This document shows positions 239 to 49,908 of a stretch of 64,000 nt of DNA, piece after piece. Position 1 is the first letter of the stretch. Every line of letters starts with the position of its first letter. Both the position numbers and the translations under genes were made by a program. Below the pieces are notes generated by a model. That model was not told the origin of the DNA. It did not search any database and saw nothing but the letters and a program-made list of their open reading frames with translations. The DNA is from Terriglobia bacterium (GTDB taxonomy: Bacteria; Acidobacteriota; Terriglobia; 2-12-FULL-54-10), in assembly GCA_963666975.2 (NCBI GenBank), contig CAXVYR010000004.1, forward strand, positions 1,088,001-1,152,000, written 5' to 3'.

Positions 239-360
239 TGCTGAACCCTCCACAACAGAACATAACAATATACTGGCAGAATATACGGGCGGAATGTACG
301 CGCAGAATGCAGGTGCGGATGCCCGTGGGGATGTCTGCGCCGTGCCGATGCGGTCCTCTT

Positions 361-1083
361 CTACAACGGATCGGGCGGTGCGCCCATGAGCACAACGTTT
401 CCTTCTTCCACGCTCATTTTGTCGATCGAGAAAGGCAGCCGAAAAGGCCGGTCGATGGAGACCTCCGGGAAGGAGGGCTTCAGATACCGCTCGATCAGAA
501 AATCCACCACCATGCGGGGCAGAGCCACCCCATCCAGCGTGACCGTCTGGAGCGCGAACCGGGCGATTCCGCCGGAACTGGTGAAGGTCCCGTCCGCTCC
601 CAGCGTATGCACGCCCTGCAAAAAATAATCGATCAGAGGATTTCCCGAGCCGCCAAAAGCTGCTTTCAATTTACCAAAGTCCGCCTGCAGGGACCCTTGA
701 GTACGCGCCGGATGGAACTGGAGGCGAACCCGCGAAACACCCGGAGGATAATAAGGAAGCATTTCAAATTGTAGATAGGAATTCGCTTCCACCTCGCTGA
801 TCCGGACCGAGCCAAAGGAACGTCCCTGACCGGCAGCCTCCCGGACCTGCTCTAACTTGCGGGCCGCTGACTGCGCCGCCTCCCAGGAAAGCCGTTGTTG
901 CAACTCACCGTCCTGCGCACGGCCTGTTTGAGCCAGCCCCCCCCAACCAAGCAACGCAAAAACCAGGCAGTTCATTCCCGCCCGGCTTGCGAACGCGCAA
1001 ATCGCTCTCTCATTCACAATCGTCATCCCCTCCACTTTTGCTCTTACATTGCTTAGAGGCGGACATCCGCTGATTGGATGCAT
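361..1083 (-). CDS. Hypothetical exported/membrane-anchored protein (true start probably downstream of 1083)
   Basis: Long ORF co-oriented with the AsmA operon, with a signal-peptide-like segment MNCLVFALLGWGGLAQTGRA. Confidence 0.6.
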   Translation of the reverse strand: MHPISGCPPLSNVRAKVEGMTIVNERAICAFASRAGMNCLVFALLGWGGLAQTGRAQDGELQQRLSWEAAQSAARKLEQVREAAGQGRSFGSVRISEVEANSYLQFEMLPYYPPGVSRVRLQFHPARTQGSLQADFGKLKAAFGGSGNPLIDYFLQGVHTLGADGTFTSSGGIARFALQTVTLDGVALPRMVVDFLIERYLKPSFPEVSIDRPFRLPFSIDKMSVEEGNVVLMGAPPDPL

Positions 1084-1116
1084 TAAATGACTGGATGAAC
1101 GAAATGAGTGGACACA

Positions 1117-3777: not shown

Positions 3778-3797
3778 CCGGCCCGGCTGGCGCCGGC

Positions 3798-4574
3798 TTA
3801 CCGGATCAGATGAAACATCCGCTTCCAGCGCGTCTTCTGCGGGAAGTGGATGACTACATCGAGCAGCCTCCTCACAAAATTCACAGCGCCCGTCTGGCGG
3901 TATTCCTCGCTGGAAGACTCAAACGACCAGTAGATCAACAGCGGCTGGCCGACAATGTTTCCCCTGGGCACAAAACCCCAGTACCGGCTGTCGGAGCTGA
4001 AATCGCGGTTGTCTCCCATGACAAAATACCGGCCCGGTGGAACCACGATTTCGCCGTCCTGAACGTGCTCCTGAAAAGTGTCGGCCCATTCGGAAAACAC
4101 CGTTCCGGAAGGCGGGGAAGGGAAATTATCCCGGTACGGTTGCATGCGGGTGCTTTTGTGGATTGCGTAGGGCTCCTCCAGCGCTTCCCCGTTGCGGAAG
4201 ACCTGCTTGTCCTCCAGATGGATTCGGTCGCCCGGCACGCCGACCACCCGCTTCACAAAATAAATTTTCGGGTCCAGCGGATAGCGAAACACGATGATCC
4301 GGTCGCGCTCCACCGGGTGATAGGGGACGATTCGGTCCCAAAATGAGGCGGGCCCGTAAGCCACCTTGTCGACCATCAGATGATCCCCGATCAACAGGGA
4401 ATCTTCCATGGAGCTGGAGGGAATTTTGAACGCCTGGATGAGAAACGTGGTGCCGAACAAAGCCAGGATCACGGTGACCACCAGCGATTCCAGATATTCC
4501 CGCGCAGTCGATTTCCCGCTCCCAGGCTGGGACTCGAGGTCCTTCTCAACCGGTCTCTCTGTTTTCACTGCCAA
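3798..4574 (-). CDS. lepB: Signal peptidase I
   Basis: Motifs IPSSSMEDSLLIGD (catalytic Ser), FVKRVVGVPGD (catalytic Lys) and GDNRDFSSDSRYWG. Confidence 0.97.
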   Translation of the reverse strand: MAVKTERPVEKDLESQPGSGKSTAREYLESLVVTVILALFGTTFLIQAFKIPSSSMEDSLLIGDHLMVDKVAYGPASFWDRIVPYHPVERDRIIVFRYPLDPKIYFVKRVVGVPGDRIHLEDKQVFRNGEALEEPYAIHKSTRMQPYRDNFPSPPSGTVFSEWADTFQEHVQDGEIVVPPGRYFVMGDNRDFSSDSRYWGFVPRGNIVGQPLLIYWSFESSSEEYRQTGAVNFVRRLLDVVIHFPQKTRWKRMFHLIR

Positions 4575-5268
4575 ATGGGTCCTCTCGCAGTTTAGACAAT
4601 GCCATCCGTGCAGCCGCCTGCTGGGCTGCCTTCTTGGTCTCTCCCTCCGCTTCCGCCAGTTGGTCGGCTCCTACACGGACCTGGACGGTAAAGACCTTGC
4701 TGTGCTCGGGGCCTCGCTCCTGAACGACCACATAATGGGGCTGAGGCGCCCGCCGGGCTTGCAACCATTCCTGCAACTCCGACTTGTAATCGCCGGTCTG
4801 AATCTGCTCCCAGTCGATCTTGCTGAGAATCGAGCGCCGGATGAAATCCCGGGCCGCTTCTACGCCGCCATCCCAGTACAGGGCCGCCACCAAAGACTCC
4901 AGGGCGTCGACCTGCAACGTCCTTTTGGTCCGGCCTCCGCTTTCCTCTTCCCCCTTGCCCAGAAGCAGGTAACGGCCGAGATGGATCTCGCGCGCAGCCT
5001 GGTCCAGATGGGCGGCACTGACCAAATGAGCCTTGAGCTTGGAAAGCTGCCCGGCGGAATGTGTGGGATACTGCCCGACTAAAACCTCGCTCACCAGGAA
5101 ACCCAGGATGGAATCTCCTAAAAACTCCATCCGCTCGTTGGAGCATTCCTCCCCCGCCCCGGAATGTTGTGCGTGGGAGCTGTGCGTGAGAGCCTGCAGC
5201 AGCAGCTCCGGCTGGGCAAAGGAGTACCCGATTTTTTCTTCTAACTCCAGCAGCGCAGCCGACTTCAT
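4546..5268 (-). CDS. rnc: Ribonuclease III
   Basis: ALTHSS, the NERMEFLGDSILG signature, and a C-terminal dsRBD (DYKSELQE...KKAAQQAAA). Start placed at MKSAALL (5268). Confidence 0.97.
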   Translation of the reverse strand: MKSAALLELEEKIGYSFAQPELLLQALTHSSHAQHSGAGEECSNERMEFLGDSILGFLVSEVLVGQYPTHSAGQLSKLKAHLVSAAHLDQAAREIHLGRYLLLGKGEEESGGRTKRTLQVDALESLVAALYWDGGVEAARDFIRRSILSKIDWEQIQTGDYKSELQEWLQARRAPQPHYVVVQERGPEHSKVFTVQVRVGADQLAEAEGETKKAAQQAAARMALSKLREDPFGSENRETG

Positions 5269-5349
5269 GCCTCTTTCCCCATCTCCCCCGGCCCCATCTG
5301 CTGGAAGAAAGAGTGTCTCGCAAGCATCCCTGGCCGCTCTGCTGTATTT

Positions 5350-5409
5350 ACAGAACAATAATTTGCAGAACTGCGATTAGCAGAACTACAATCTGGCAAA
5401 CTACAATGA
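5350..5409. repeat. 4 x 15-bp degenerate tandem repeat between the TPR gene stop and rnc
   Basis: ACAGAACAATAATTT / GCAGAACTGCGATTA / GCAGAACTACAATCT / GGCAAACTACAATGA. Confidence 0.7.
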
Positions 5410-6351
5410 TCCGGCCCCGGAATCCTCACTTCTCTCCTCTTGACTGATCGGGGACTGGAACAGAACAGAGCCGGAGACAGGCACCCGGGAGACGGCCTTC
5501 GACTTGAGCGCAAATTCTTTGGCCTCCGAGACCAAGTCCCTGGTTCCTCCGCCTGGAGACGGCACCCGCACGCCTCCGGCAGTCGCCGATTGCTCCAGCG
5601 CTTCCAGAGCCAGATCGTACTTCTCTTGGTAAGAGTAGGAAAGGCCCAGCCGGTACCATGTCACCGGGTCGGGCCGGGAGGCCAGCGTCGTGGCCATCTT
5701 AAACTCCGCCTCCGCTCTGGCAAAGTCCTCGCGGATCAAAGCAATCAAACCCAGCGCCGCGCGCGGGGTTGCCTCTGCGTCTTTTTTGGTGGCAACCCAT
5801 TGCGCGATGGTGAAATGGGGCGGCTTCCGGAGATTCGAGATCTGCTGCAAGGCACGCCCGGCGTATCTCTCCACTTCAACCAGTTTTTCCTGATAGTCGA
5901 TGTCTCTCCTGCTGGTTCTTTCCGCAATCGCCGAGGCGAGAATCAACAGCGCCACCAGGTTGTTTTCATTCTCCGAGAGAGTCAATTCGCCATAGGTCAG
6001 CACCCTGGCAAAGTCATTTTTCGCCTGATAGGCTTGCGTGGCCGCTTGAAAGGCGTGTTCTTTTAACTCTGATTGGGGATACTCCAGCAGAAAGTCCTCG
6101 ACCAGGCGTATCTGCTCATCCGGGTCCTGTTCCTGCATGAACTGCTGGTAGGCTGCAAACTCCTCTTGCGACCTCGCCTCCGGGACCGGCGGCGGTCCTC
6201 CTTCCTGGGCCTGCGGTTGAGCGTCCTGTGGTTGAGAGACCTGTGGTTGAGCGGCCTGCGGCGGCGGGGCAGCCGCCTCAGCCGGAATTGGAGACAGGAC
6301 TACCATGGCGCTCAGCACCAGAATGCCAAAAGCAGACCATAATCGTTTCAT
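5401..6351 (-). CDS. Exported tetratricopeptide-repeat protein
   Basis: Signal peptide, P/Q-rich linker and TPR-like helices (e.g. PVTWYRLGLSYSYQEKYDLALEALEQ). Confidence 0.8.
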   Translation of the reverse strand: MKRLWSAFGILVLSAMVVLSPIPAEAAAPPPQAAQPQVSQPQDAQPQAQEGGPPPVPEARSQEEFAAYQQFMQEQDPDEQIRLVEDFLLEYPQSELKEHAFQAATQAYQAKNDFARVLTYGELTLSENENNLVALLILASAIAERTSRRDIDYQEKLVEVERYAGRALQQISNLRKPPHFTIAQWVATKKDAEATPRAALGLIALIREDFARAEAEFKMATTLASRPDPVTWYRLGLSYSYQEKYDLALEALEQSATAGGVRVPSPGGGTRDLVSEAKEFALKSKAVSRVPVSGSVLFQSPISQEERSEDSGAGSL

Positions 6352-6419: not shown

Positions 6420-8018
6420 TTAACCCAGGGGAACACCGTGCCGGGGCTTTCTTTCCTCCCTTGGAATTTCCTGCGGCGGACTCTCTCTGCCAGCCGGTGC
6501 GAACTCTTCCTGCATGCCCTTTTCGGCTGCGGCGCGCGTTTCGGCGGAAGAATCACCGGCTGCCAGGGCGGCGGCATACTCGGCCTGCGCCGCCTCCCGG
6601 TTTCCCTCCATGTCCAGCATGCGTCCGAGATATATATGAGACCATGCTTTCAAATGAGGGTCTGCGTTCGAAGCCGCCACCTGCGTGAAGTATTGCTTTG
6701 CCATCACCGGCTTGTTCTGACGGGTGGCGACAATCGCCAGCCCGTAGAGCGTCCGCGGGCGCGAGTCATATTGTTTGGCAAGGCCCTCGAAGATGCGCAG
6801 CGCGCCCTCATAATCTCCTTGCCCAATGCTGTCCTCTCCCCGGCGGGCCATCTGTTCGTAGGAAAACCAGAGGAGTTCACTCCTCGGCTCGGCGGGCTGG
6901 GCGCGGAACTGGACCTGCGCGATGCGCTCTTGTTCCTCTTCCACAGAGATGGCTTCGATCATCTCCGGATAATACCGCCGCATGCCTACCGGTTGCTGCT
7001 CAAATACCTCCATCGCCTCGAAGAAATACGTTGTCAGAAAAAATCCTTCCTCGACGGCGTCCTCCACGGCGCGCAGCTTAGCCTTGGAATCGGCAGGGGA
7101 ACGGCGCGCTTGGACCGCCTGGATCAGCGACTCGGTCAGCAGCAGGCTGAAACTTCTTTGGAAGGCAACATCGAGCGCGGGAGCTTGCTCGGTGATCTTC
7201 AGCAGCTCCTGTTTCGCCGCCACCTCCCTGCCGTATTTCAAAAGATAGGGATCGAAATGATAGTGGAGCCACCCGTGCTGAATCTCCTGCTCGGGAATCT
7301 CCGCCGAGGGGCTTGCCACGATGAAGTAGTCGTCCCCGTAGCTGCGCGCGTGGGTCTGGTTGGGCGCTCCCAGCGGGTTGATATAAATGGCGAAGCGGCG
7401 ATTCCAGTAGCCGGGCGTGTTCACCCGCAGGTAGCTGTTGGTCTCCACGATGGTTCGCGCCAGCGCTTTTTGATACCGCTCGCTCTCCTGCTCCATTGCC
7501 GGCAGATATTTTTCCCACATAGATTGGATGCCGGCTTCCTGGTAAAAGGCGGCGATCAGAGGAACCATATCTTGCAGGTCCACCACGTCGGGAGGCAGGT
7601 TGGCGGGGCTCACTTGCAACTCGAAAGAGGGCGGACCGGACAGAAGCAAGGCCAGGGAAACATACTGGCCCAGGTCGCGGGAGGGATCAAAAAGCTGATG
7701 ATCGCCATAGAACACCCGCAACGCCGGCAGGCTGGGGATGTCCTTTGCGGCCAACTCCTTTCGCACAGCGTAGCGCATCGGCGCCAGCTCCGGCCTGCCT
7801 GCGCCCACGTCGAAACCGGCGGCGTTGACCGCGGCCAGCACCGTGAACAGTTGCAGGTTCGGCTCGGCGACGATTCCTTGTTGTTGCCCTTGTCGTTGTT
7901 GTTGCGCTTGCAGCGACACCACTCCCAGTGAGGCTGCTCCCAGCCACAACACAAAGCCATACAAGAAGATAGGAGGGAATTTTCTGAGTCTCAAAGGGCC
8001 TGTTTGCCTTTCGGCCAC
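6420..8018 (-). CDS. Exported protein with C-terminal TPRs; first gene of the operon
   Basis: 532-aa ORF with a signal-like N-terminus and TPR 'AWSHIYLGRMLDMEGNREAAQAEYAAAL'. GTG start lies just downstream of a sigma70 promoter. Confidence 0.8.
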   Translation of the reverse strand: MAERQTGPLRLRKFPPIFLYGFVLWLGAASLGVVSLQAQQQRQGQQQGIVAEPNLQLFTVLAAVNAAGFDVGAGRPELAPMRYAVRKELAAKDIPSLPALRVFYGDHQLFDPSRDLGQYVSLALLLSGPPSFELQVSPANLPPDVVDLQDMVPLIAAFYQEAGIQSMWEKYLPAMEQESERYQKALARTIVETNSYLRVNTPGYWNRRFAIYINPLGAPNQTHARSYGDDYFIVASPSAEIPEQEIQHGWLHYHFDPYLLKYGREVAAKQELLKITEQAPALDVAFQRSFSLLLTESLIQAVQARRSPADSKAKLRAVEDAVEEGFFLTTYFFEAMEVFEQQPVGMRRYYPEMIEAISVEEEQERIAQVQFRAQPAEPRSELLWFSYEQMARRGEDSIGQGDYEGALRIFEGLAKQYDSRPRTLYGLAIVATRQNKPVMAKQYFTQVAASNADPHLKAWSHIYLGRMLDMEGNREAAQAEYAAALAAGDSSAETRAAAEKGMQEEFAPAGRESPPQEIPREERKPRHGVPLG

Positions 8019-8128
8019 CTGAATCGACGGCCATTTTCTGCCTCTTTACAGTCTAGGGAAATCGGGGTCCGCAGTCAACCGTTTGGCGGGGTGAGCACTA
8101 TACCCCCCCTGAAGTTGGCCCACCCCCC
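7818..8128. repeat. Direct repeat copy 1 (~310 bp): TPR-gene 5' end + promoter + G/C-run 'A' motif
   Basis: Aligns by eye with 16732-17024 at high identity, apart from an 18-bp indel in the Q-rich tract. Confidence 0.92.
8050..8078 (-). promoter_or_regulatory. sigma70-type promoter of the TPR-rnc-lepB-AsmA operon
   Basis: Minus strand reads TTGACT-17 nt-TAGACT, about 30 nt upstream of GTG 8018. Confidence 0.75.
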
Positions 8129-9036
8129 TGTGGAAAATCGAGGTTTCTCCGGCTGAGTCTATGTGGCTTCTTTGAGGGCGGCTGGTTCCCTAGACGATTG
8201 CCAGAGTGCTATATTGGTGATTAGTCTTGCTTGGTTCCAACACGTTTTAGCATGATTTTTCTACCACACTATTCACGCAATTAATGGACCATAATCGGGC
8301 TCATATTTGGATTAGGAGGTGAGCTACTATGTTGATGGTGGTATTCGGGGCTGGTGCCTCTTATGACTCAGTCCCTTCGCGTCCTCCGAATAAGTTCCCA
8401 CTTCCACACCGTCCACCGCTTGTGGATGAATTGTTTGCGGACAGGAGTGAGTTTGCTGAACCGATGTCCCTCTTTCCGAAAATCCACCCCATCATTCCCA
8501 ACCTTCGGGCTATCCCCGAAGATTCTACGTTGGAGCAAGAACTCGAAAAATTACAGAAACAGTCGAGGGAGCACCCAGCGCGACATGGACAACTGGCTTC
8601 TGTCCGTTTTTATCTCCAGTACATGCTTTCGCAGTGTCAAGACAGGTGGAATGAAGATGTTGCTAAGGGCATAACGAATTACAACGTATTATTAGACGAC
8701 ATTGAACGTTTGCGTAGAAAAGAAGAGCGAATCTGCATGGTTACTTTTAACTATGACACTTTGCTTGAAGCAGTTCTACACACTATTAACATTGAAGTAA
8801 GAGATATTCATGATTACGTTGCAGACGAGTATTATACACTGATTAAGCTGCACGGCTCCGTCAACTGGGCCCGCGAAGTCGAAACGGTAATCGATGCAAA
8901 TCACGGATTTGATGTTGCACACGAGTTGATTGCAAAGGCCGACAAACTTGTAATTAGCCAAAGATACCGCATAGTGTACGTCGTCAGATAATGTTGGACA
9001 CAGAGCATAAAAAGATAAGATGTGGCGTTCAGGCTC

Positions 9037-10485
9037 GAGGGTGTCCCATACATAGTTGAAGGTTGAACGGCGGTTCGGCCCGAATCGAATAGAATCGGGC
9101 CAAGCCTAAATCCTATAGAAGGAGAACCGCCGAATGAAGGGAAAATATCACGTTTTGGAACTGGGTTCCAAGGGAGCCGAAGAAACCATCCAGAAGTTTT
9201 GCCAAACCAACGGACAGATGCTGTTGCCGGTGGTGGATCTGATCACGGAGGCGCGTCTGGCGGTGGATGAGGTGATTGATCGGGCCGGGCGAGGTTTGAT
9301 TGAAACGATTCTGAGCATGAGCGCAGAGCAAATCGCGGGGCCAAAGAGTCCCGGGAAGGCGAGCGGAGAGGTGCGCTGGCATGGCCGGCAATTGGGGAGG
9401 GTGAAACTGGCCGATCGCCAGCTGCGGGTGGAGCGGCCCCGGCTGCGCCGGAAGGGCGGAGGGGAAGAAGCGGTGCCGGCCTACGAAGCACTGCGGAAAA
9501 GCGAGAAGACGGGCGAGGAGATGTTCGAGGCACTGTTGAAAGGGGTTTCGACGCGGAACTACCGCGAGGTGATCCCGGAGATGGCCAACAGCGCTGGGGT
9601 GTCGAAGTCTCAGGTGAGCCGGGAAGCGGCCGAGCAAGGAGCGCGGCGGCTGGAAGAACTGTTGGCGCGGCGCTGGGAGGAGGTCGAGATTCTGGTGATT
9701 TACCTGGACGGAATGCGGTTCGGCTCCCACCACGTCATCAGCGCCGTGGGCGTGGACATCGAGGGCCGCAAGCATGTGCTGGGGATTCAACTGGGCGCGA
9801 CCGAAAACGCCGCTGCGGTGAAAGACCTTCTCACCCGCCTGCGCCAGCAAGGTTTGCGCACGGATCAGCGCTATCTGTTTGTGATCGACGGCGCCAAAGC
9901 GCTCCGCGCGGGGATCGAGGAAGTATTCGGCAGCAATCAGCTGGTGCAGCGTTGCCGTACTCATAAGCTGCGCAACGTGGCTGAGCGGTTACCAAAGGGC
10001 GACAAAATGCTGGCGAATCAGGTGCGGTCGCTGATGCGCGCCGCCTGGCGATTGCCCCAAGCCGAGGAAGGCATCGTGCGCATAAAAAAGCTCGCTGGGA
10101 TGATCGAGTGCGATCATCCGGCAGCAGCCGCCAGCTTGCGCGAAGGGTTGGAGGAGACCTTTACGATCAATCGAGCCGACGTTCCTCCCAGCCTCCACCG
10201 CTGCCTGGCAACCACGAACCTCATCGAGAGCCCGCAGTCGGGCGTGCGGAAAAAGACTGGCAATGTTTGCCGCTGGCGCGACGGCGAGATGACGTTGCGC
10301 TGGGTGGCAGGAGCGTTTCTGCTGACCGAGAAGAATTTCCGGAAGATCATGGGTTATCACGATCTCTGGGCTTTGGCATCGATTCTCGGCCGAAGTCCAA
10401 ACGCTGCTTCCTCTCACAAGGAGAAAGTGGCGTAATATGAACTCAACCCGCCGTCCCAACCTGCAACTGAGTTTGGGACACCTTC
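9037..10485 (+). mobile_element. IS256-family element, complete
   Basis: IRs GAGGGTGTCCCATACATAGTTG / GAAGGTGTCCCAAACTCAGTTG. 8-bp TSD TCAGGCTC at 9029-9036 and 10486-10493. Confidence 0.95.
9134..10435 (+). CDS. IS256 (Mutator-type) transposase
   Basis: Motifs GVSTRNY, IYLDG, VIDGAKAL, QRCRTHKLRN and TTNLIES. Confidence 0.95.
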   Translation: MKGKYHVLELGSKGAEETIQKFCQTNGQMLLPVVDLITEARLAVDEVIDRAGRGLIETILSMSAEQIAGPKSPGKASGEVRWHGRQLGRVKLADRQLRVERPRLRRKGGGEEAVPAYEALRKSEKTGEEMFEALLKGVSTRNYREVIPEMANSAGVSKSQVSREAAEQGARRLEELLARRWEEVEILVIYLDGMRFGSHHVISAVGVDIEGRKHVLGIQLGATENAAAVKDLLTRLRQQGLRTDQRYLFVIDGAKALRAGIEEVFGSNQLVQRCRTHKLRNVAERLPKGDKMLANQVRSLMRAAWRLPQAEEGIVRIKKLAGMIECDHPAAAASLREGLEETFTINRADVPPSLHRCLATTNLIESPQSGVRKKTGNVCRWRDGEMTLRWVAGAFLLTEKNFRKIMGYHDLWALASILGRSPNAASSHKEKVA

Positions 10486-10506
10486 TCAGGCTCCTCTGGG
10501 TTGATG

Positions 10507-11490
10507 TTAGGCTGCCCTTCTTTTGAAGTGCAACCGTTTTCTTAAGATCATAGTTTTCTCTTTGATGCGATCCCGTTTTTGCAGGATGGCACTGCCTTGG
10601 CCTGTAAAAACGTCATACGGTGTCAGGTTGTTCAGGCTTTCATGGTATCGGTTGGTGTTGTAGTGGTTGACGAAGGCATCGATCTGCCGCTCCAGCTCTT
10701 CTGGCAGGTAATAGTTGTTGAGCAGGATGCGGTCTTTCAGAGTTCGGTGCCAGCGTTCGATCTTGCCCTGCGTCATGGGGTGATAGGGCTTGCCGCGAGT
10801 ATGCGGCACGCTGTTTTCTGCCAGCCATGATTGCAGTTCGGAAGAGACGTAGCACGGCCCGTTGTCGCTCAGGAGGCGAGGTCTGTGCCGGGCGCCCACG
10901 CGGTCGAGGCCGGTGGCTTGCAAAGCATCCCGCAACGTGGCCGAGACGTCACTTGCGCTCATGGTTTTGCACAGCCGCCAGGCGATGATATAGCGCGAGA
11001 AGTCGTCCAGCACCGTGGACAGGTAGAACCAGCCCCAACCGATGACTTTCAGGTAGGTGAAGTCGGTCTGCCAGAGCTGGTTGACCGCCGTGGTCGGGTT
11101 GGCGAACCGTTCCGCCGCTTTCAGGACAATAAAGGCTGGCGCGGTAATCAGGTCATGGCTTTTCAGGACGCGGTAAACCGTCGATTCAGAAAGGTAATAC
11201 CGCCTTTCCTCGGTAAAACGCACCGCCAGCTCGCGTGACGACAGATCGGGCTCGGCCAGGGCTAACGTCACCAACTGCTGAGTTATCTCCTCCGGCACCT
11301 TGTTCCAGACAGGGCCAGGATCGGGTTTTTTGTCTTCCAGCCCATCAAAGCCTTCCGACACATAGCGGTCGTACCAGTTGTAAAACGTCGATCTGGGAAT
11401 GCCAACCTGCTGCAGCGTCCGGCGCACCCCCAGGGCAGATTGCTCCACCGTGCAGATGATCTCCAGCTTCTCCGAGGCAGGGTATCTCAT
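10507..11490 (-). CDS. IS transposase OrfB (HTH + rve DDE)
   Basis: Motifs WQTDFTY, LSDNG and TQGKIERWHRTLK. Confidence 0.93.
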   Translation of the reverse strand: MRYPASEKLEIICTVEQSALGVRRTLQQVGIPRSTFYNWYDRYVSEGFDGLEDKKPDPGPVWNKVPEEITQQLVTLALAEPDLSSRELAVRFTEERRYYLSESTVYRVLKSHDLITAPAFIVLKAAERFANPTTAVNQLWQTDFTYLKVIGWGWFYLSTVLDDFSRYIIAWRLCKTMSASDVSATLRDALQATGLDRVGARHRPRLLSDNGPCYVSSELQSWLAENSVPHTRGKPYHPMTQGKIERWHRTLKDRILLNNYYLPEELERQIDAFVNHYNTNRYHESLNNLTPYDVFTGQGSAILQKRDRIKEKTMILRKRLHFKRRAA

Positions 11491-11858
11491 GTATGTTCCT
11501 CCCCATCCCCGATCACGCTTTTTTTTAGCAGGCGATTTTCCAGCATAGCCTCGGCCAGGGCCTCTTTCAGCTGTACGGCCTGCTCCCGCAGAGTCTTGAC
11601 TTCGCCACTGGTTGCCTCACGGTCTATGTCGCCCGCCAGCCGCTTGCGGCCAGCCTCCAGAAACTCCTTGCTCCAGCGGTAATACTGGTTCTGGTGCAGC
11701 CCCTCGCGGCGGCACAGCTCCGCGATGCTGTCCTCGCCGCGAAGTCCCTGCAATACAATGCGGATTTTGTCTTCCGGGCTGAACCTGCGCCGCGTCCTGC
11801 GTTTGATCTCCCGGACGGCCTTCTCGACCGCCCCCCTGTCGTCTTGTTTTTGTCTCAT
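11487..11858 (-). CDS. IS transposase OrfA (HTH)
   Basis: RRRFSPEDKIRIVL...SIAELCRREG. Its stop overlaps the OrfB start (ATGA). Confidence 0.9.
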   Translation of the reverse strand: MRQKQDDRGAVEKAVREIKRRTRRRFSPEDKIRIVLQGLRGEDSIAELCRREGLHQNQYYRWSKEFLEAGRKRLAGDIDREATSGEVKTLREQAVQLKEALAEAMLENRLLKKSVIGDGEEHT

Positions 11859-12654
11859 CTTCGTTCCTTTCAGTCTCTACGATGAGCCAAAAACATCACC
11901 TTAACTATTACCCTCTACCTGTCCAACAAGCCCTGACGGGGCACAACCGCATAGTACCAAGTGGTCCCAATTGGAAAACAAGGGAATATGCTCTTTTCCC
12001 CGCATTGGCTTTACCAGTCGTGACTAAAAGTGATTTTGCATGTCCAGCGGAGCACCTAGATGTATTGCAGGAATTTATTCCAAATGTAACGAAATTAATG
12101 GTGATCGGGTGGCGTGCAAGAGACGAAGCTTTTCTCCGCTTACTTGCGAGCAAAATTCAAAACAATCTACGGGTGATGGTTGTCGCGGGAAATCCAGTAT
12201 CTGCACGAGAGGTAATTCAAAATCTCAAAAATCAGGGTATAAGAGGGGATTATTCATCGACTTCTGGTGGATTTACCGAAATGATCCTCAATCACCAGGC
12301 GGAAGATTTTTTGCGAAGCGGGTAGCCACGGTGAGAGCTTTACTCGTCGTGAGCATTTCTTCAGCTTCCTTTTGGCTCGATTCCAACAAGCCCCGCAAGC
12401 GTTTGCCAATGCCGTGGATGCGGAACCCGCCTGCCAGCACGAATAGTCACGGCGTAAGGCTCAGAGACCCCAAGTGTTGATGACAAGATTGAGAGGGTGA
12501 CCCCTGCAAGACGGGGCTGTATCTGTTCGAGATATTCCTTTTCAGTAAGCCCGGCGGGGTATCCAGACTTTTTCCAGGTGCGCTGTGCGGCGGCATGGCG
12601 GCGCTGTGTGTTTGCCCGACGGGCCTGAGCCTCGGCATTTACAAACCCACGGCA

Positions 12655-12699
12655 AATTGAACTGCAAATTTGCCGTGGCTACCACTTAAGCCGCCCCAA
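12655..12699 (-). pseudogene. hicA: hicA toxin remnant (internally deleted)
   Basis: Overlapping the hicB end, the minus strand gives (L)GRLK followed out of frame by SGSHGKF, the HicA GSH motif. The rest of the gene is missing. Confidence 0.45.
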
Positions 12700-12892
12700 T
12701 CTCAACCTCGACCATGCGAACCTTTGGAGGGCGTGTGGCTTGTGGCGGCTCAAAGTACAATTCCAGCGCTTCTTGCAGGTTTGCGAGGGCTTCTTCTTCC
12801 GTCTCTCCCTGGCTCGTTACATCGACCTCCAAACACTGGGAGACAAACCAGTCTCCTTCGCGCCAGACGGTAGCAGCAAATGAACGCTTCAT
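12686..12892 (-). CDS. hicB: HicB-family antitoxin
   Basis: MKRSFAATVWREGDWFVSQCLEVDVTSQGETEEEALANLQEALELYFE, with an AGGAGG RBS. Confidence 0.9.
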   Translation of the reverse strand: MKRSFAATVWREGDWFVSQCLEVDVTSQGETEEEALANLQEALELYFEPPQATRPPKVRMVEVEIGAA

Positions 12893-12961
12893 GCCCTCCT
12901 TTTTCGCACACCCCATCGGAGTTCGCCTAGCCCGGAAGCGACTCGGTAGCGTGGCAGCCAT

Positions 12962-13072
12962 GGCCCGCCGAACCGAAAGTCCTCTGGATCGCAGGCTGGT
13001 GAGCGTTTTTCCCTCGACTTCTCCCTCGGTTTCGCTCGGGACAAGTCTCGCCTTGGGTCTTTCGGCGGCGTT
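12962..13072. repeat. 'B' arm copy 1 (interrupted by a ~40-bp REP-like insert at 13011-13047)
   Basis: GGCCCGCCGAACCGAAAGTCCTCTGGATCGCAGGCTGGTGAGCG...TCGCCTTGGGTCTTTCGGCGGCGTT matches 16666-16740. Confidence 0.88.
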
Positions 13073-14637
13073 TACTTTGAAGTGATCAGCAAATGTGCAT
13101 AGGTAAAACTATCCACAAGAGCTTTCCAGCTGGCGTCGACGATATTCCCATCGACTCCAACTGTTCCATAGCTTTTTTCGCCGATCACCGATTCAATCAG
13201 CACTCTTACCTTTGCCGCCGTTCCCCTTTGCTCTGGAATGATCCTGACCTTATAGTCCTCCAGCTTAATCTCCCCCAGCTCCGGATACTTGCTCACCAGC
13301 GCTGCCCTTAAGGCTAGGTCTAAGGCATTTACAGGACCATCTCCATAAGCCATTTTTGTAACTTCCTCGCCGCCGACCTTGATCCTGACGATAGCGCACG
13401 ACTCGGAGCTAACTGATTCTTTTCTGGCAACCTCAACGCGATATTCTAACAAGTTAAATATTTCCGTATGTTCGCCTTTGATGCTCCTTACGAGCAAATC
13501 CAGCGACGCATCCGCCGCCTCAAACGTGTAACCCTGGTGCTCCAGGCTTTTAATCTTGTTGACCACCTTGCGGGCAAGCGAATCTCCCTTTCGAATGCCG
13601 AATCCCTCCAAGGCTTCTATATGCGCTGTCCCAGCCAAATCAGAAACCAGAAACTGTCTTCTATTCCCTACCACTTCCGGATTGATATGCTCATATAATC
13701 CGGAGTTTTTCAGGACGGCGTCCACGTGAACTCCGCCTTTATGGGCAAAGGCGGAATCTCCAACATAAGGCTGCTGGCTGGCCGCCGGCAAATTCGCTAT
13801 CTCATAAACGAATCTTGCCAGCGCCCTTAATCCCGATACATCAATATTTCCTTTCGTTGGGGTGCCGTTTTTAAATAAATTGGCGATGGAGGTGATTAAG
13901 TCGGCATTTCCGACCCTTTCGCCAATGCCATTGATAGTGCCCTGCGCCATCTCCACGCCTTCATAAACCGCCACCAGGCTGTTTGCCACCCCGTAGCCAA
14001 TATCGTTATGCGCGTGAATTCCCAACCTCGCATCGGGCAACTCTTTTTTTACCTGCCGGATCATGTCCGCGACGGCAAGAAAGTCCGTTCCGCCGTTTGT
14101 GTCGCATAGCACTATGTGCTGGGCTCCCGACGAATGCGCAGCATGCAACGTGCTGATGGCGTAGTCCTGATCCAATTGGAAGCCATCAAAAAAATGCTCC
14201 GCATCATAAATCACGTCTTTCCCGCGGCTTCGCAGATATGCAATGGAATCGGAAATCATTCGCAGATTTTCCTCCGGCTTGGTTAGTAGAGCCTCTCTGA
14301 CATGGAATGTGGAACTCTTGCCGAAGATGGTTACAGTTTGCGTGTCAGCTTCAATGAGCAACTTCAAATTGGCATCATCTTCCGGATTAACGCCTTTTTT
14401 GCGAGTACTCCCGAAAGCCGCAACCCGAGCGTATTTTATTGGAACATCTTTTATTCGATGAAAAAACTCGATATCTTTCGGATTGGAACCGGGCCATCCG
14501 CCCTCAATATAATCGAAGCGCAAATCATCCAGCCTCTTGGCTATTTGCACCTTGTCGTCGGCGGAAAACGAGATGCCATTGCCTTGGGTTCCATCTCTCA
14601 ACGTTGTGTCATAAATTAGGATTGGTGTTTTTTGCAA
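13072..14637 (-). CDS. cimA: Citramalate synthase (CimA/LeuA-related, with regulatory domain)
   Basis: YDTTLRDGTQ, IEGGWPGSNPKD, YDAEHFFDG, HAHND, FAHKGGVH, GDGPVNALD. Lower GC than the core genes. Confidence 0.9.
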   Translation of the reverse strand: MQKTPILIYDTTLRDGTQGNGISFSADDKVQIAKRLDDLRFDYIEGGWPGSNPKDIEFFHRIKDVPIKYARVAAFGSTRKKGVNPEDDANLKLLIEADTQTVTIFGKSSTFHVREALLTKPEENLRMISDSIAYLRSRGKDVIYDAEHFFDGFQLDQDYAISTLHAAHSSGAQHIVLCDTNGGTDFLAVADMIRQVKKELPDARLGIHAHNDIGYGVANSLVAVYEGVEMAQGTINGIGERVGNADLITSIANLFKNGTPTKGNIDVSGLRALARFVYEIANLPAASQQPYVGDSAFAHKGGVHVDAVLKNSGLYEHINPEVVGNRRQFLVSDLAGTAHIEALEGFGIRKGDSLARKVVNKIKSLEHQGYTFEAADASLDLLVRSIKGEHTEIFNLLEYRVEVARKESVSSESCAIVRIKVGGEEVTKMAYGDGPVNALDLALRAALVSKYPELGEIKLEDYKVRIIPEQRGTAAKVRVLIESVIGEKSYGTVGVDGNIVDASWKALVDSFTYAHLLITSK

Positions 14638-14737
14638 TGTCGTTCCTTATTTCTTATTGTAACTTCGCTTTGATGGCAAATCCCCGGCCAGGCCATTTTC
14701 GTTCATGGCCCAACCTCACCTTGCGAGGCCCACGAGT

Positions 14738-14798
14738 CTCAACCGGAATTAGTTTTTTGACTCTCCGGCGGTCGCCAGTATACACCCGTCTTGCTCCC
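14738..14798 (-). mobile_element. Isolated IS1380-family right-end remnant pointing at cimA
   Basis: Minus strand GGGTGTATACT...AAAAAACTAATTCCGG resembles the IS1380 right ends at 53470-53492 and 36560-36603. Confidence 0.7.
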
Positions 14799-14799
14799 G

Positions 14800-14926
14800 A
14801 GGGGGGTGTGGGCCAGAAACAGGGGGGTAGCACTTTTTCCTTTTGTATAGCCTACCCCATCAACCATTTGGCATTTGGGGGGGGGGGGGTGAGCACTATA
14901 CCCCCCGATTGTTAGCCCACCCCCCT
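14800..14926. repeat. 'A' motif copy 2 (14860-14926) plus an inverted partial copy (14800-14829)
   Basis: TCAACCATTTGGC..GGGGTGAGCACTATACCCCCC..CCCACCCCCC matches 8075-8128. AGGGGGGTGTGGGCCAGAAACAGGGGGGTA matches the reverse complement of 8100-8129. Confidence 0.85.
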
Positions 14927-15147
14927 TGCAGCAGCTAAAATCAGGTCACCTATTGTCACTCGGGAGGCTTGCTTTGGGCTACGGAGGAAATGTGCTTGGG
15001 AACGCGACGGGCTGCCCATAGGAAAAACCGGATGGCAAACCGAATTGATGCTGTCCGGAGTTGCTGGCACCGTTGCAGTTTCAGTTTGTGATAAGGCAGG
15101 TGGGGAATTTTTATCCGGCGCTCTACAGATTCTCCCAATTATCTTCA

Positions 15148-15834
15148 TTATCTTCGCGGCGCTGCGGTGGTTTTGCCGAAGAGCCGGAAGCGGTAGTTTT
15201 TGGTGTCGTAGGTGATCCGCATGAGCGTCAGCAAGAGCAGCGCTGTCAGGAAAAGAAGCCCGGCATAGAGCATCTGCGGAATTCGAACCGGCAGCCAAGC
15301 CATCCAGACGAAAGCCCGTTCGAGTTTCCGGAGATCGGCAACAAAGCGGTCACGCCGTTTCGCCCAGCGGTAGCGTGTGACGTGGTTCACCCAGCGATAG
15401 CTGATTGTGTGGTAGCGCAATTCCAGGTGCGCCCGCAGGTGCGCCTGATTCTCCTGGTCGAGCCAGAACCCGTCACCATTTTCATTGAAAACAAAAAAAC
15501 GCCTGGGGCGCATCACCAGCAAAGCAAAGGCCCGGCAGAGACTTAATTTGAATTCCCCTGTGGCGAAGATCACAACCAAATCATATTCTTTTCGCGCTTT
15601 CCACTCGAGACGGAGACCGCCGAGCAAGCGTTTTACCCGGAAAGTGTTGCGGAACCCGAATCCAGACCGCGCCGTCTTTGCCAGCAGGTCGAAGGTCAGG
15701 AGCGGGAATACATCCCGCAACTTGGCGTAAGCACAGGAGGCCGTATCGGCGGAAGCAGATTCGATGATCAGGCCTTTTCCAGACCACCGGTCAAATGGCG
15801 AACCCTGGAATGTGTAGCGAAAGTTTGGAAACAT
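15148..15834 (-). CDS. Hypothetical membrane protein
   Basis: ORF starts immediately after the methyltransferase stop, has a C-terminal TM and a 'FVFNENGDGFWLD' segment. Confidence 0.65.
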   Translation of the reverse strand: MFPNFRYTFQGSPFDRWSGKGLIIESASADTASCAYAKLRDVFPLLTFDLLAKTARSGFGFRNTFRVKRLLGGLRLEWKARKEYDLVVIFATGEFKLSLCRAFALLVMRPRRFFVFNENGDGFWLDQENQAHLRAHLELRYHTISYRWVNHVTRYRWAKRRDRFVADLRKLERAFVWMAWLPVRIPQMLYAGLLFLTALLLLTLMRITYDTKNYRFRLFGKTTAAPRR

Positions 15835-15835
15835 G

Positions 15836-16576
15836 TCAGGGCGCCACCAGAATGTTATCAAAGGAACAGACAGGGCACTTCCACAACCCATTCGATCCAG
15901 CGGAATATTCCGAAATCGGGGCGCCGCATTGGGAGCAGACAACGTGAATCTGCTGATAGCCCCGCTGTTCTCCGAGGCGGAACAGCAGAAGATAGTCGTT
16001 CGCCTCCAGCGGATTGTTTCCCGTGGCCCGGCGCCATGTCCGAAAACTTCGATAGATTAGACGCCGGATCAAGTTGCCGAGAGGAACGTCCCGCAGCCAT
16101 GTGAATCCGCCTGGCGCAAGCCCCATTCCCTCCAGCTTGAAGCTGCTTTGCTGGTAAACCAGCGAGATGAATGTATCGAACCCATATAACTGAATGTGCC
16201 CGCCGCCTTTGAAGGTAAATCGGTAAAGACGGTCCTCCAGGCTGCTGGATCGCGGGATGGCGATGTAAAGCAGACCGCCGGGCCGTATGACTCGATTCAG
16301 TTCGCGCAGTGCAGAACGCGGATCGCGGAAATGCTCGAACACATAACCGCAGATGGCCGCGTCAAAGGCGGAACTGGCCCAGGGCAGTTGTTCGGCTTCG
16401 GCCCGGACGATCCAGGCATTGGGAGGCCATGAGCCGGATTCCGTATGCGCAAACTGTTCCGTGCCGAAAAACCGCAGCTGCGGAAAGCGGGTGTAGGACA
16501 CCGTGCCGGAGCCGCATCCCAGGTCCAGCACGCACGCACCAGCGGGAAGCTGCGCCAAGGGGAGAAAATTATTCAT
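15836..16576 (-). CDS. Class I SAM-dependent methyltransferase with C-terminal Zn-ribbon
   Basis: VLDLGCGSG, AEQLPW..FD, VFEHF, RVIRPGG, then CSQC...CPVC. Confidence 0.88.
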   Translation of the reverse strand: MNNFLPLAQLPAGACVLDLGCGSGTVSYTRFPQLRFFGTEQFAHTESGSWPPNAWIVRAEAEQLPWASSAFDAAICGYVFEHFRDPRSALRELNRVIRPGGLLYIAIPRSSSLEDRLYRFTFKGGGHIQLYGFDTFISLVYQQSSFKLEGMGLAPGGFTWLRDVPLGNLIRRLIYRSFRTWRRATGNNPLEANDYLLLFRLGEQRGYQQIHVVCSQCGAPISEYSAGSNGLWKCPVCSFDNILVAP

Positions 16577-16665
16577 CTGCCGGCACCTTGTCTCACCACG
16601 AAAGCAAAGAATCTGAGATTAGGCGATGGGCGTGCTTCAAGTCAACCCTGCAAGCGGATAGCAAC

Positions 16666-16740
16666 GGCCCGCCGTACCGAAGGTCCTCTGGACCGCAGGC
16701 TGGTGAGCGCTTTTTTCGCCGTGGGCATTTAGGCGACGTT
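16666..16740. repeat. 'B' arm copy 2
   Basis: Matches 12962-13072 without the REP insert and ends in GGCGACGTT. Confidence 0.88.
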
Positions 16741-16914
16741 GCCTGCTGCCAGCACCGTGAACAGTTGCAGGTTCGGCTCGGCGACTATACCTTGTTGTTG
16801 CCCTTGCAGCGACACCACTCCCGGTGACACTGCCCCCAGCCACAACACAAAGCCATACAAGAAGATAGGAGGGAATTTGCGAATTCTCAAAGGGCCTGAT
16901 TGCCTTTCGGCCAC
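16729..16914 (-). pseudogene. Duplicated, truncated 5' end (61 codons) of the TPR gene 6420-8018
   Basis: MAERQSGPLRIRKFPPIFLYGFVLWLGA...PNLQLFTVLAAGNVA* is nearly identical to the N-terminus of 6420-8018. Confidence 0.92.
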
Positions 16915-17024
16915 CAGAATCGATGGCCAATTGCTACATCATTACAGTCTAGGAAATCGGGGTCCGCAGGCAACCGTTTGGCGGGGGTGAGCACAATACC
17001 TCCCCTGAAGTTACCCCACCCCCC
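16732..17024. repeat. Direct repeat copy 2 (TPR 5' end + degenerate promoter TTGCCT-16-TAGACT + 'A' motif copy 3)
   Basis: Aligns with 7818-8128. Confidence 0.92.
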
Positions 17025-17245
17025 TGGTCTGGGGATGCCGGTGCCAAGCGGTGAGAAATGTGGCTATAACTCAGGCCAATGGCGTACACTTGCTAGCAGC
17101 GGGAGGACACAGCGAATAATCCTGGCAAACCAACCGCCATGGCACCCCCATGGCTCATTCAATCTTGGATTGACCGATGAGCCATCTCCCAAATGTTTCG
17201 GGGACACATGAAAGTAAGATTGGACATTCCTCATTAGGAGGAACA

Positions 17246-17814
17246 ATGAACGCGATGAGAACATCCATCTTAGCCGGCTTACTCATTGCTCTGGTACCCG
17301 TTGCTTACGCTCAAGAGATTGAGCCTGATCAACAGTACTTATTACTTGCTACAACAAAAACATCCACGATGCAGAAAGAACTCGATGAGGCCTCCTCGCA
17401 AGGTTTCAGGGTCGTGGTAGGTTCGCCGACCAGTGGCAAGGAAATGGCATTGCTGCTCGAGCGGGTGACCCACCCGCACCTCCAAAAATTTACACCTACC
17501 AACTGCTCGCGACTACTCGCACGAGCACCATGCAGAAAGAACTCGATGAGGCTGCCTCAGAGGGGTTTCGCCTGCTACCAAATACCATGATTGCGAAAGA
17601 TCGGATGTTTGGCGACGAGGAAATTGTGGTCATATTGGAACGGGAGCCGAACGCAACCAAACGCTACTCCTACAAGCTTCTCGCTACAAGTAGGACTGGA
17701 ACATTGCAAAATGAAATTTCGGAAGCAGAGGCGGACGGATATGTTGTGGCAGGAATGGTCAGCCGTGGTGAGCACATGGTCATATTGGAGAAGGAATCCC
17801 CCGGGCGCGAGTGA
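17246..17814 (+). pseudogene. Exported protein with three internal repeats, 1-nt frameshift near 17470
   Basis: AGGAGG RBS and signal peptide. The repeat Y.LLAT..TSTMQKELDEA..EG[FY] occurs three times across two frames. Length is 569 nt (3n+2). Confidence 0.75.
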
Positions 17815-18889: not shown

Positions 18890-19850
18890 AGTTAAGTAAT
18901 CATGATGAGTCATCGAACCGAGTCTGACACCAGGGGCAGCGTCCCACAAGCCTAATGAGTATGACTGGCAGCCTCTTCCTCACCATCGGCAAGGTCACAC
19001 CAGAAGTTTTTTTTCAGGCGTGCCTGTTCAGAGCGAAGGAACGCATAGGCGAAACTGACCCGGCAAACGTGATGGTGCCAGCCCAGCCACTGACGGCCCT
19101 CGTAATGATCCAGTCCCAGTTCTTGTTTCAATTCGCGGTAATCCAACTCCACCCGCCAGCGAGCCTTGGCGATGCGCACCAGCCGCCTCACCCCCGGAGG
19201 CCGGGCGCCGAGCCAGCCAGTATTTCGTGGGCTCTTTGGACTGCTTTGGCCATTCCACCAGCAGCCATTCCACCACCCGGGCCGGGTGTTGCTGTTTTCG
19301 CCAACCGTGAGCCGCCCAAATGGGGATCATGGCGAAGCGCGAGCGCTGCATGCCTCGGCTTCCTGGACGCCAAGCCACGGTTCGCCAGGCCGAGGCCGGC
19401 AACTGCCCGGCCAGCGCTCGCAGGTTCTGCGGTCGCGGCAGAGTCTCCAGCGGAGGATACTGCCGTGACCGACCTCTCTGCTTCGGGATCGGCAAGGGCC
19501 GATTCGGATCCTCGGTCCAAATCACCGTCGTCGGTTCCACCTGCACTGCGTAGGACAGACGCCGCTCTCGCAGGGCCTGCCGGAAGCCAAAATCGTTGCC
19601 GTAATAGGAATCAGCCACTACCGGCAGGCAGGGCAACCCCCACCCCAGAGCCTGATCGATCCCTTCCAGGGCCAGTTCCGTCTAGCTGCGGTACCTCGTT
19701 CCGAGAGGCAACTTGACCTCCGCTGCCCGCTCGGCGTCTTCCAGCCATTCCTTCGGCAGGTAGAGCCGCCACAGGATCGGACAACCGGCCTCCGAACTGG
19801 ACCAGTGCAGGCTCACCGCTACCTGGCAGTTCGCCACCTTGCACAGCTTC
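18890..19850 (-). mobile_element. IS701-family transposase remnant (5'-truncated, frameshifted)
   Basis: KVANCQVAVSL, VVADSYYG and RWRVELDYRELKQELGLDHYEGRQWLGWHHH spread over several frames. Boundaries are approximate. Confidence 0.85.
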
Positions 19851-24940: not shown

Positions 24941-24963
24941 GAGAGGACGCTAAGGAGGAAATT

Positions 24964-25368: not shown

Positions 25369-25412
25369 CAGGCCAAGCAAGAGCAGATCCATCTGACCAG
25401 TTCCCGCGGGAC

Positions 25413-31113: not shown

Positions 31114-31298
31114 GGCTGTTTCAGAGTTGGTGTAGAGTGCTTCGCAGCCCTGCAAGGGCGGTAGAATCTAGCCCAGGGCGTAAGCCCTGGGACAACGGGG
31201 ACCGGTATTACCCCAAGCCCTAGAGGGGCGCAAGACGTTCCGGCCCTCGTCTTTCGCCCCCTTCGGCAAGCTCAGGGCAGGCTCTCAGAATGACCCTA
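31111..31298. mobile_element. MITE-like REP element; its end supplies the TAG stop of the FAD gene
   Basis: Termini TAGGGCTGTTTCAGAG / CTCAGAATGACCCTA. The body matches 25421-25568. Confidence 0.72.
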
Positions 31299-49892: not shown

Positions 49893-49908
49893 GCATGTCT
49901 GTAACCAC

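Follow-up and report, generated by a model that had tools for sequence, protein, structure and literature searches.

Duplicated starts of a TPR gene around a 9-kb insert in a Terriglobia genome: possible decayed remnants of site-specific integrative elements

A stretch of 64,000 nucleotides from a Terriglobia bacterium (assembly GCA_963666975.2, contig CAXVYR010000004.1, positions 1,088,001 to 1,152,000; hereafter the window, whose own coordinates are used throughout) contains an insert of about 9 kb inside the start of a TPR gene, with defence-like, antitoxin-like and metabolic genes in it. The intact TPR gene (6420..8018, minus strand; 532 aa, open translation) is the first gene of a conserved cluster, which continues on the same strand with a second TPR gene (5401-6351), the RNase III gene rnc (4546-5358) and the signal peptidase I gene lepB (3798-4574), the latter two recognized by Pfam and NCBIfam, and an AsmA-like gene (1117-3777). 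An initial annotation had described the region as a stack of integrase-less cassettes, each with an A arm, a B arm and a 9-bp core around exchangeable cargo, and the names A, B and core are retained here for the sequences concerned. The core reads GGCGRCGTT on the plus strand and AACGYCGCC on the gene strand. Domains were searched with Pfam over the 66 open reading frame (ORF) translations of the window, and with NCBIfam and PADLOC, and 31 related loci (labelled L001 and so on; one genome per species) were collected by a protein-anchored scan.

The start of the TPR gene is present in two directly repeated copies, at 7818-8130 and 16732-17026 (314 aligned nt, 85.0% identity with gaps, E 3e-86 by BLAST), which are 89-97% identical in ungapped blocks and 85-90% identical overall. 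Each copy is continuous, and comprises A, a sigma-70-like promoter, a leader and the first TPR codons up to the core. In the copy joined to the intact gene (M_b, 7818..8130, minus strand; the attached copy), A occupies 8088-8130, the promoter P2 lies at 8050-8078 (TTGACT-17-TAGACT, sigma-70-like in the promoter scan), and the leader and codons 1-67 extend to the core at 7818-7826. In the detached copy (M_psi, 16732..17026, minus strand), A (16984-17026) is followed by a promoter copy, TTGCCT-16-TAGACT, which is our reading of the sequence and not scan output, and by an open 5' fragment of 61 codons that extends to the core and whose frame ends at a TAA supplied by the adjoining B arm just past it. 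The homology of this 5' fragment to the intact gene ends at the core in the alignment, and the 310-bp repeat is limited by the core on the gene side, and by one identical base on the A side. As had been proposed, the TPR-TPR-rnc-lepB-asmA cluster stays intact thanks to the extra promoter and gene start, judging by the promoter scan and the open frame.

A third, partial A at 14883-14926 (46 nt, 87%, E 6e-8) completes the three direct copies noted in the initial annotation, here delimited at 8088-8130, 14883-14926 and 16984-17026. It forms part of a feature at 14840..14926 (minus strand; A') in which A is joined to a decayed copy of P2; this feature extends to about the gene start, and the 5' coding fragment is absent from it. 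Head to head with A', alignment placed a partial inverted A (A'', 14798..14830, plus strand), which is weak by BLAST alone (25 nt, 80%, E 0.18) and is backed by its junction with an insertion sequence (IS) end, which is also seen in L002. The head-to-head pair, with its 55-nt spacer, looks like the trimmed stump of a long palindrome that two facing gene-start modules would have formed; the fold of the pair is no better than that of shuffles (z -0.06). Among the 31 related loci, A itself was found only in L002 (79% protein identity), where it lies upstream of an unduplicated TPR gene and has the same IS-end junction as in the window. The outer edge of A falls at one base in five contexts (the SIR2 side, 17027, an uncharacterized ORF, and the IS end twice). 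Because A is contiguous with the operon promoter, and in L002 lies upstream of an unduplicated gene, it does not behave as the conserved cassette arm that was first described, and is best understood as the outermost part of the gene-start module that was duplicated, and not as an arm owned by the cargo.

The B arm occurs twice, as annotated (12956-13010 and 16660-16714; 55 nt, 89%, E 2.5e-13). The B1 arm (16660..16740, minus strand) consists of the core (16732-16740) within a 25-nt block (16716-16740), followed by the conserved block (16660-16714). In the B2 arm (12956..13072, minus strand), whose core abuts the stop codon of cimA, the core (13064-13072) and the 25-nt block (13048-13072) are separated from the conserved block (12956-13010) by an insertion of 37 nt (13011-13047). 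The core was found at 7818, 13064 and 16732, and at an unrelated site at 57; this count of 4, compared with 1.82 expected in the window, is not significant alone, because 13 of 100 shuffles reached it. The 25-nt block, counted from the first base of the core, is identical at 20 of 25 positions between the B copies, a score reached by none of 5000 dinucleotide shuffles. MAFFT placed the spacer between core and B block differently from the ungapped alignment, and the shuffle test is therefore relied upon for the joint homology of core and B. The core matters because the B homology begins exactly there in both copies, and core and B together adjoin two unrelated left contexts, the TPR gene fragment and the cimA stop codon. 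Alignment and shuffle test thus bear out that the core ends both B arms, lies in the intact gene and is where the duplicated 5' fragment stops. Rfam returned no family in the arms, with the whole window searched at gathering score and 12400-17300 at E up to 1. Beyond 17026, on the right, the sequence contained neither B nor the core nor a piece of the TPR gene, and the further unit that had been postulated past 17024 has no support in the sequence.

The two core-and-B junctions divide the insert into units of about 3.7 and 5.2 kb, the second including 2.9 kb of IS elements. Next to the attached module, and divergent from the TPR gene, lies the 5' part of a SIR2_2-like gene (8329..8991, plus strand; Pfam PF13289 E 1e-5, PADLOC SIR2 models E 1e-6 or weaker) with a GAGAS-type motif at its start and a G+C content of 0.45-0.51. 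Its probable 3' part (~11921..12325, plus strand) rests on a reading of the translation, and gave no Pfam match. The gene is broken by two elements. An IS256-family element (9037..10485, plus strand; transposase 9134-10435, Pfam Transposase_mut E 4e-35) has inverted ends and 8-bp target duplications (9029-9036 and 10486-10493). An IS3-family element (10494..11945, minus strand; orfA 11487-11858, orfB 10507-11490; Pfam rve, HTH_Tnp_1 and LZ_Tnp_IS481) follows it, and a search for its terminal repeats gave nothing clear, so that its ends are not fixed. The SIR2 family assignment of the initial annotation stands; that the gene lies on the plus strand, and that two elements interrupt it, had been missed. 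Farther right, of the pair that had been called hicB-hicA', the HicB-like part holds: a small protein (DUF7387 / UPF0150-like; 12686..12892, minus strand) matched Pfam PF24113 (E 3e-8), and its gene has 68% DNA identity to a gene of a Thermus plasmid whose annotation reads HicB family antitoxin, the one match returned when 12440-17100 was compared with plasmids by BLAST. The hicA assignment is not sustained, since the ORF concerned (12364..12678, minus strand) has no Pfam, NCBIfam or PADLOC match, and an Atlas helix-turn-helix lead for it (0.82-0.86) is weak.

The middle of the insert contains cimA, a full-length citramalate synthase gene (13072..14637, minus strand), whose identification agrees with the earlier one (TIGR00977, 632 bits compared with a cut-off of 450). 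Its G+C content is 0.49-0.54, and its best database relatives are Acidobacteria at 73-78% identity; these are more distant than the relatives of the TPR protein, which suggests that it is not the native copy of the lineage, although the database matches do not mark it plainly as native or as foreign. Upstream of cimA, at a distance of ~105 bp and pointing towards it, lies the right end of an IS1380-family element (S, ~55 nt, 14743..14797, plus strand), which had been recognized correctly and matches an element of the window at ~51844-53500 and its short derivatives; promoter-like hexamers in S, which we read by eye and which are not in the scan list, are directed into A''. The complete element (51844-53500) has its transposase split in two ORFs (51956-52693 and 52824-53486), and the short derivatives (36374-36602 and 35014-35146) keep both ends, like miniature elements, with promoter-like hexamers in their right ends.

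In the unit next to the detached gene start, two ORFs in overlapping frames (264 and 128 aa; 14912..15942, minus strand) had no match in Pfam, NCBIfam or PADLOC. They correspond to the "membrane protein" of the initial annotation: a single hydrophobic stretch is present by hydropathy in these one or two ORFs, and the identity as a membrane protein is not upheld. The neighbouring gene (15836..16576, minus strand) encodes a class I S-adenosylmethionine-dependent methyltransferase (Methyltransf_11, Pfam E 7e-15) with a zinc-ribbon-like C-terminal end. The methyltransferase call was therefore right, and the modification role attached to it found no backing: there was no DNA-methylase match, all NCBIfam scores were below their cut-offs, and PADLOC gave mad2 at 32 bits only.

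The G+C content was 0.45-0.52 in the SIR2 parts, 0.56-0.60 in the methyltransferase unit and 0.50-0.52 in 16801-17800, compared with 0.575-0.63 in the operon and 0.585-0.65 beyond ~17600. The insert is therefore DNA of atypical composition (0.45-0.56, compared with about 0.60 in the flanks), and its foreign appearance is supported. Just outside it, 17027-17814 (G+C 0.50-0.52) encodes a small protein of secreted appearance, in a gene that has a 71-nt internal repeat (17336-17406 and 17497-17567), is read in two frames and is apparently frameshifted; a 79-aa ORF at 18952-19191 (minus strand) resembles the C-terminal end of a DDE transposase by reading of its translation.

Other repeats and mobile-element debris occur elsewhere in the window. 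After a tRNA-Arg (TCG) in 49816-51346 comes a fragment of 188 bp (50002-50189) which matches the left end of the IS256-family element (9035-9221) at 99.5% identity; IS3-like fragments (50268-51346) lie next, and together these make a second patch of such debris. A 166-bp direct repeat (25408-25571 and 31106-31267, 88.5%) brackets a 5.7-kb block of ABC fragment, CMD, PilZ, metallo-beta-lactamase-fold and FAD oxidoreductase genes; one copy begins 16 bp upstream of the start of the gene at 24937-25392, and the other overlaps the oxidoreductase stop codon. The repeat holds two of the three Acido-Lenti-1 RNA motifs assigned by Rfam (25448-25496, minus strand; 25608-25653, plus strand; 31146-31191, minus strand). 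Six amidohydrolase-family paralogues of 612-659 aa lie in 39241-47305 and 53606-57405, several of them with 73-78% DNA similarity to one another. At 61415-61481 (plus strand) there is a tRNA-like Rfam match (36 bits, cut-off 29), for which ARAGORN makes no call.

The TPR protein had 286 homologues, all of those with a source name being labelled Acidobacteria or Terriglobia, and its database relatives are 89%, 80% and 78% identical. Downstream of the TPR gene, the order TPR-TPR-rnc-lepB-asmA was kept in the related loci that extend far enough. Upstream, the neighbours of the gene differ in all related loci, and none of 17 upstream and cargo proteins of the window had a match in any of the 31. 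The TPR gene hence heads a conserved block with a variable left side. The core falls at its codons 65-67, in a nearly invariant coding block, 'AAVNAAG'. In 13 loci in which it was tried, the gene start could be placed in four, and three of these (L002, L004 and L011) have the pattern TTGAC-N16-19-TAGACT; L010 retains the second promoter hexamer only. The predicted operon promoter is, by this pattern, conserved well beyond this lineage. In more distant Terriglobales (L014, L021-L026 and L028-L030), genes for an ECF sigma factor and a zf-HC2 anti-sigma factor lie directly upstream of the TPR gene on the same strand, a pair which suggests that the cluster is under envelope-stress control in those genomes. 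The closest relative locus, L001 (88%), is uninformative about insertion because its contig stops 27 bp upstream of the gene start. In L002, positions 1-4000 contain several repeats of 60-110 bp in both orientations (79-187 and 291-399 at 94.5%, for example), which look like a dispersed intergenic family.

Between the attached and the detached gene start there are 15 differences in 183 shared coding nt, with 6 amino-acid changes and one in-frame indel of 18 nt. Both frames are open, and the proportion of synonymous sites that differ is ~0.19 (48.5 sites) compared with ~0.045 for non-synonymous sites (134.5 sites). Identities among the attached copy, the detached copy and L001 are about equal (87.5-89.9%), L002 being more distant; private changes numbered 6 in the attached copy, 10 in the detached copy, 7 in L001 and 17 in L002, with 2-2 splits of 2 and 1. 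These ratios, the open frames and the equidistance with L001 agree better with two alleles from different lineages than with a fresh local duplication, and fit copies that would have diverged mostly under selection, one of them coming from another lineage and the detached one then partly decaying. Four changes are private to the detached copy, two of them in the nearly invariant 'AAVNAAG' block. Residues L11 and A29 are common to the attached copy and P0004, the closest full-length relative among the labelled TPR-protein homologues, and I11 and V29 are common to the detached copy, the homologues P0243 and P0005, and L002. Neither the four-way differences nor these diagnostic residues gave a decision on which copy is native. 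No short protein (33-107 aa) resembling the detached fragment came up in a protein search; in 1.84 billion representatives there were 3 matches, one a true relative (P0243, 203 aa), and no truncated fragment, P0243 not being one because its sequence continues past the core.

Small accessory modules that lack a recombinase and have duplicated gene ends around them are found repeatedly in this clade, as two related loci illustrate. In L005, L010 and L011, acs lies upstream and the interval from acs to the TPR gene varies. In L005, a direct repeat of 117-122 bp (5517-5638 and 6704-6825, 91-93%) flanks an Xre-RES toxin-antitoxin pair, and no recombinase is present; the repeat covers the promoter of acs together with the initial 13 nt of the gene, and the detached copy reads five codons and then diverges. 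In L011, a 180-bp, 81% copy of the 3' end of vapC with its downstream flank (4832-5011 and 5663-5842) lies just upstream of a vapB-vapC pair, and a pair of 45-nt inverted repeats lies beside the vapC copy, at 4614-4815. The flank of A (8131-8145) resembles the edge of the L005 repeat over 15 nt, which may be due to chance.

We put at about an even chance the reading that the locus consists of decayed remnants of one or more site-specific integrative elements, which accreted at an attachment (att) site inside the TPR gene and were later scrambled. Such an element would insert at a short site, the core AACGYCGCC of the gene strand, in the 'AAVNAAG' stretch. Its circular form would carry B on one side of the core and a spare gene upstream region, promoter and first 67 codons on the other, and its integration would split the TPR gene yet rebuild it, as that of SXT does at prfC. 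The second junction of core and B, after cimA, would reflect a second recombination event, either tandem accretion or use of an internal att site. The integrase would have been lost, or would act from elsewhere, and the interior would have been reworked later through insertion of the IS256- and IS3-family elements into the SIR2 gene, fusion of the IS1380 end to an inverted A, and trimming of the palindrome. The sequence itself shows the repeats with their sharp common boundaries, the atypical composition, the intact operon and the lack of a recombinase in 64 kb; we infer the circular intermediate, a crossover located at the core, which type of recombinase acted and in what order the events took place. 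Site-specific recombination at the core is favoured because the boundary of core and B is sharp and common to two junctions, and the position of the core inside a nearly invariant coding block agrees with this, as att sites often lie in such blocks. A number of results weigh against it. The middle junction has cimA in place of the expected promoter and 5' fragment, and its A' copy lies 1.8 kb from the core of B2, beside the inverted A''. B is known from just two copies, both in this one locus, and was found in none of the 31 related loci; folding of the B arms did not surpass that of shuffles on three of the four strands (z -0.39, 0.30 and -0.24; the fourth, -1.91), and the arms have no significant internal symmetry. 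Pfam detected neither a tyrosine or serine recombinase nor an excisionase, nor a remnant of either, in the insert or in the rest of the window, where the only recombination-type matches are the DDE transposases of IS elements; in 27 related loci, the 152 ORFs that lie ahead of the TPR gene gave no recombinase match at E thresholds of 1e-3, 1e-6 or 1e-8. A second TPR gene start was absent from all 31 loci on self-comparison, at least 2 kb of upstream sequence being present in 23 of them. Crossover at the core also predicts that the detached copy is the native one, and its residues track the gene body no better than those of the attached copy, a pattern that would be mildly awkward for such a crossover.

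With no integrase found, repeats that are long and diverged, a parallel in L005 and no decision on the native copy, a Campbell-type insertion by RecA stays in play, in which a circle from a related strain, carrying the start of the TPR gene, would cross over once there, and likewise at B; recombination between the repeats could then release the circle again and allow spread between relatives without an integrase. We regard this as rather unlikely. It accommodates a window without a recombinase, and repeats that are long (310 and ~80-117 bp) and diverged by 10-15%, as expected of homologous segments from different lineages. The attached copy, at least as native as the detached one, would fit a crossover near the A end and not at the core, and L005 has the same layout at acs, as L011 has its 180-bp, 81% repeat of the vapC 3' end around vapBC. 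Nevertheless, recombination between segments only 85-90% identical is inefficient, the homologies of B and of the gene fragment ending at the same 9 bases are not accounted for, nor is the edge beside cimA, and the first event that made the circle is not explained. The lack of an internal recombinase also agrees with the active cassette platform initially proposed, in which A- and B-armed units with exchangeable cargo would be moved by a recombinase in trans and stacked as in an integron. Two units with different cargo each start with core and B, an A-type sequence follows each cargo block, and what lies ahead of the TPR gene varies between loci, L005 and L011 having toxin-antitoxin genes there. 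We nonetheless find this platform, a bolder form of the site-specific reading, improbable, given that A belongs to the gene's own upstream region in L002, that cargo is decaying (SIR2 broken by two IS elements, some ORFs in overlapping frames), that the related loci have no B, and that the arms lack attC features. Exchange of cargo is not borne out by two units in one genome, with neither B nor a second 5' fragment in the relatives and no recombinase upstream of their TPR genes. Nor is the array a clean stack of like units, because its middle junction is not A, promoter and 5' fragment followed by core and B, and reads instead A' with a decayed promoter, inverted A'', IS1380 end, cimA, core and B.

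The rearranged middle junction, with its head-to-head A pair and IS1380 end, also agrees with a scenario in which resident DNA underwent local segmental duplication and IS-driven rearrangement, with old repeats that drifted in place. Four IS families lie in or near the region, and the four changes private to the detached fragment, some of them in the conserved block, resemble those of a decaying copy. Such an origin is hard to reconcile with intervening genes of atypical G+C that are missing from the loci of relatives, with IS elements that have ends of their own and do not bound the repeats, or with a fragment branch just ~1.5 times as long as the attached branch (10 and 6 private changes), an open frame and a low ratio of non-synonymous to synonymous change, and we give it little credence. 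An assembly chimera of co-existing strains is most improbable. The module copies do differ about as much as related strains or species do, and the L001 contig stops just before the gene start; against this, the TPR and CimA proteins of the window are encoded on one contig of 4,519,525 bp, the junctions are precise and recurrent, and copies 10-15% apart are not usually collapsed or mis-joined in assembly.

If the reading as decayed site-specific elements holds, the locus provides a new attachment site, in a conserved coding stretch where the rnc-lepB cluster begins, together with two arm sequences, which could be used to find the missing recombinase and sister elements in Acidobacteriota, a phylum with little-studied mobile elements; it would also imply that foreign genes can sit in the start of an important operon at no cost. 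Such insertions may explain some contig breaks in metagenome bins at the TPR locus. As it stands, the locus is one decayed example in one genome. A more speculative proposal, which we consider a long shot, is that Terriglobia harbour a class of recombinase-free "gene-start" cassettes, small modules for defence, metabolism or toxin-antitoxin functions that would exist as circles and bring along the initial codons of a conserved gene and an extra promoter. These would insert at the start of that gene without breaking it, through a host recombinase at a short core or through RecA alone. If so, the TPR locus and the acs locus of L005 would be two cases of accessory genes parked at the head of essential operons.

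Among known systems, the minimal mobile elements of Neisseria are presented, in the part of PMC3787668 devoted to them, as blocks free of mobility genes, in a fixed place, for which exchange through homologous recombination is presumed. In L005, L010 and L011 the interval from acs to the TPR gene behaves in this manner; minimal mobile elements, however, lie between two conserved flanks without duplication, whereas in the window conservation is confined to the downstream flank and the target occurs twice. The units also differ from transposons and IS elements, as no inverted repeats bound them and the duplication is 310 bp and not short. ISEcp1 can capture an adjacent gene by one-ended transposition, and the IS1380-family (ISEcp1-like) right end that points to cimA from ~105 bp upstream resembles the outcome of such capture, but only ~55 nt of the IS is left and no alternative right end was seen after cimA; at most, capture would explain the arrival of cimA, and not the repeats.

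Integron cassettes and clusters of attC sites lacking integron-integrases (CALIN) are similar in their small units, in their accessory, toxin-antitoxin-like and defence-like genes, and in the lack of a recombinase in the units. Integrons are characterized by an attC palindrome that folds as a single strand with GTTRRRY, and by IntI, attI and Pc. The arms at the TPR gene, as already recognized in the initial annotation, are not attC: B has no significant fold, and none of the three cores presents GTTRRRY, the bases after GTT misfitting RRRY. Furthermore, no IntI or attI was found in the 64 kb, the units are multi-gene, in both orientations and with their own promoters, and 310 bp of target are duplicated. 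Integrative elements that decayed in tandem, a known kind of structure, fit the arrangement better than a platform of integron type does.

SXT/R391 elements at prfC exemplify site-specific insertion within the 5' end of a conserved gene, as stated in the passages of PMC2791158 and PMC4542580 on their integration, and tandem arrays of them are mentioned in the latter. The TPR locus is alike in that the insertion would lie in the 5' end of the gene with the gene kept whole (core at codons 65-67, 532-aa frame with promoter). SXT reportedly supplies a new promoter and 5' coding end for prfC, a finding attributed to Hochhut and Waldor in 1999. SXT/R391 elements differ from the present locus in being 79-110 kb long, conjugative and defined by Int, whereas here there is neither Int nor a conjugation module.

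Closest in outcome are the cis-mobilizable elements (CIMEs) of streptococci. The sections of PMC5704250 on accretion treat these as integrase-less decayed elements that keep attL and attR, and give three-step tandem accretion as an established outcome. The likeness to CIMEs and accretion (ICESt1/ICESt3) lies in the loss of integration and transfer genes with retention of flanking att repeats, in what may be a second unit joined at the att site, and in decaying cargo. In the window, the flanking repeats (7818-8130 and 16732-17026) end at the core, and no integrase or transfer gene was matched by Pfam between them. In contrast with CIMEs, the TPR locus belongs to Acidobacteriota and has the coding start of a protein gene as its target, its units measure ~3.7 and ~5.2 kb with a rearranged junction between them, and an integrase-bearing relative was not found beside the TPR gene in 27 loci (152 ORFs). 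Set beside these systems, the locus looks like a decayed site-specific island, and not like a new kind of cassette system.

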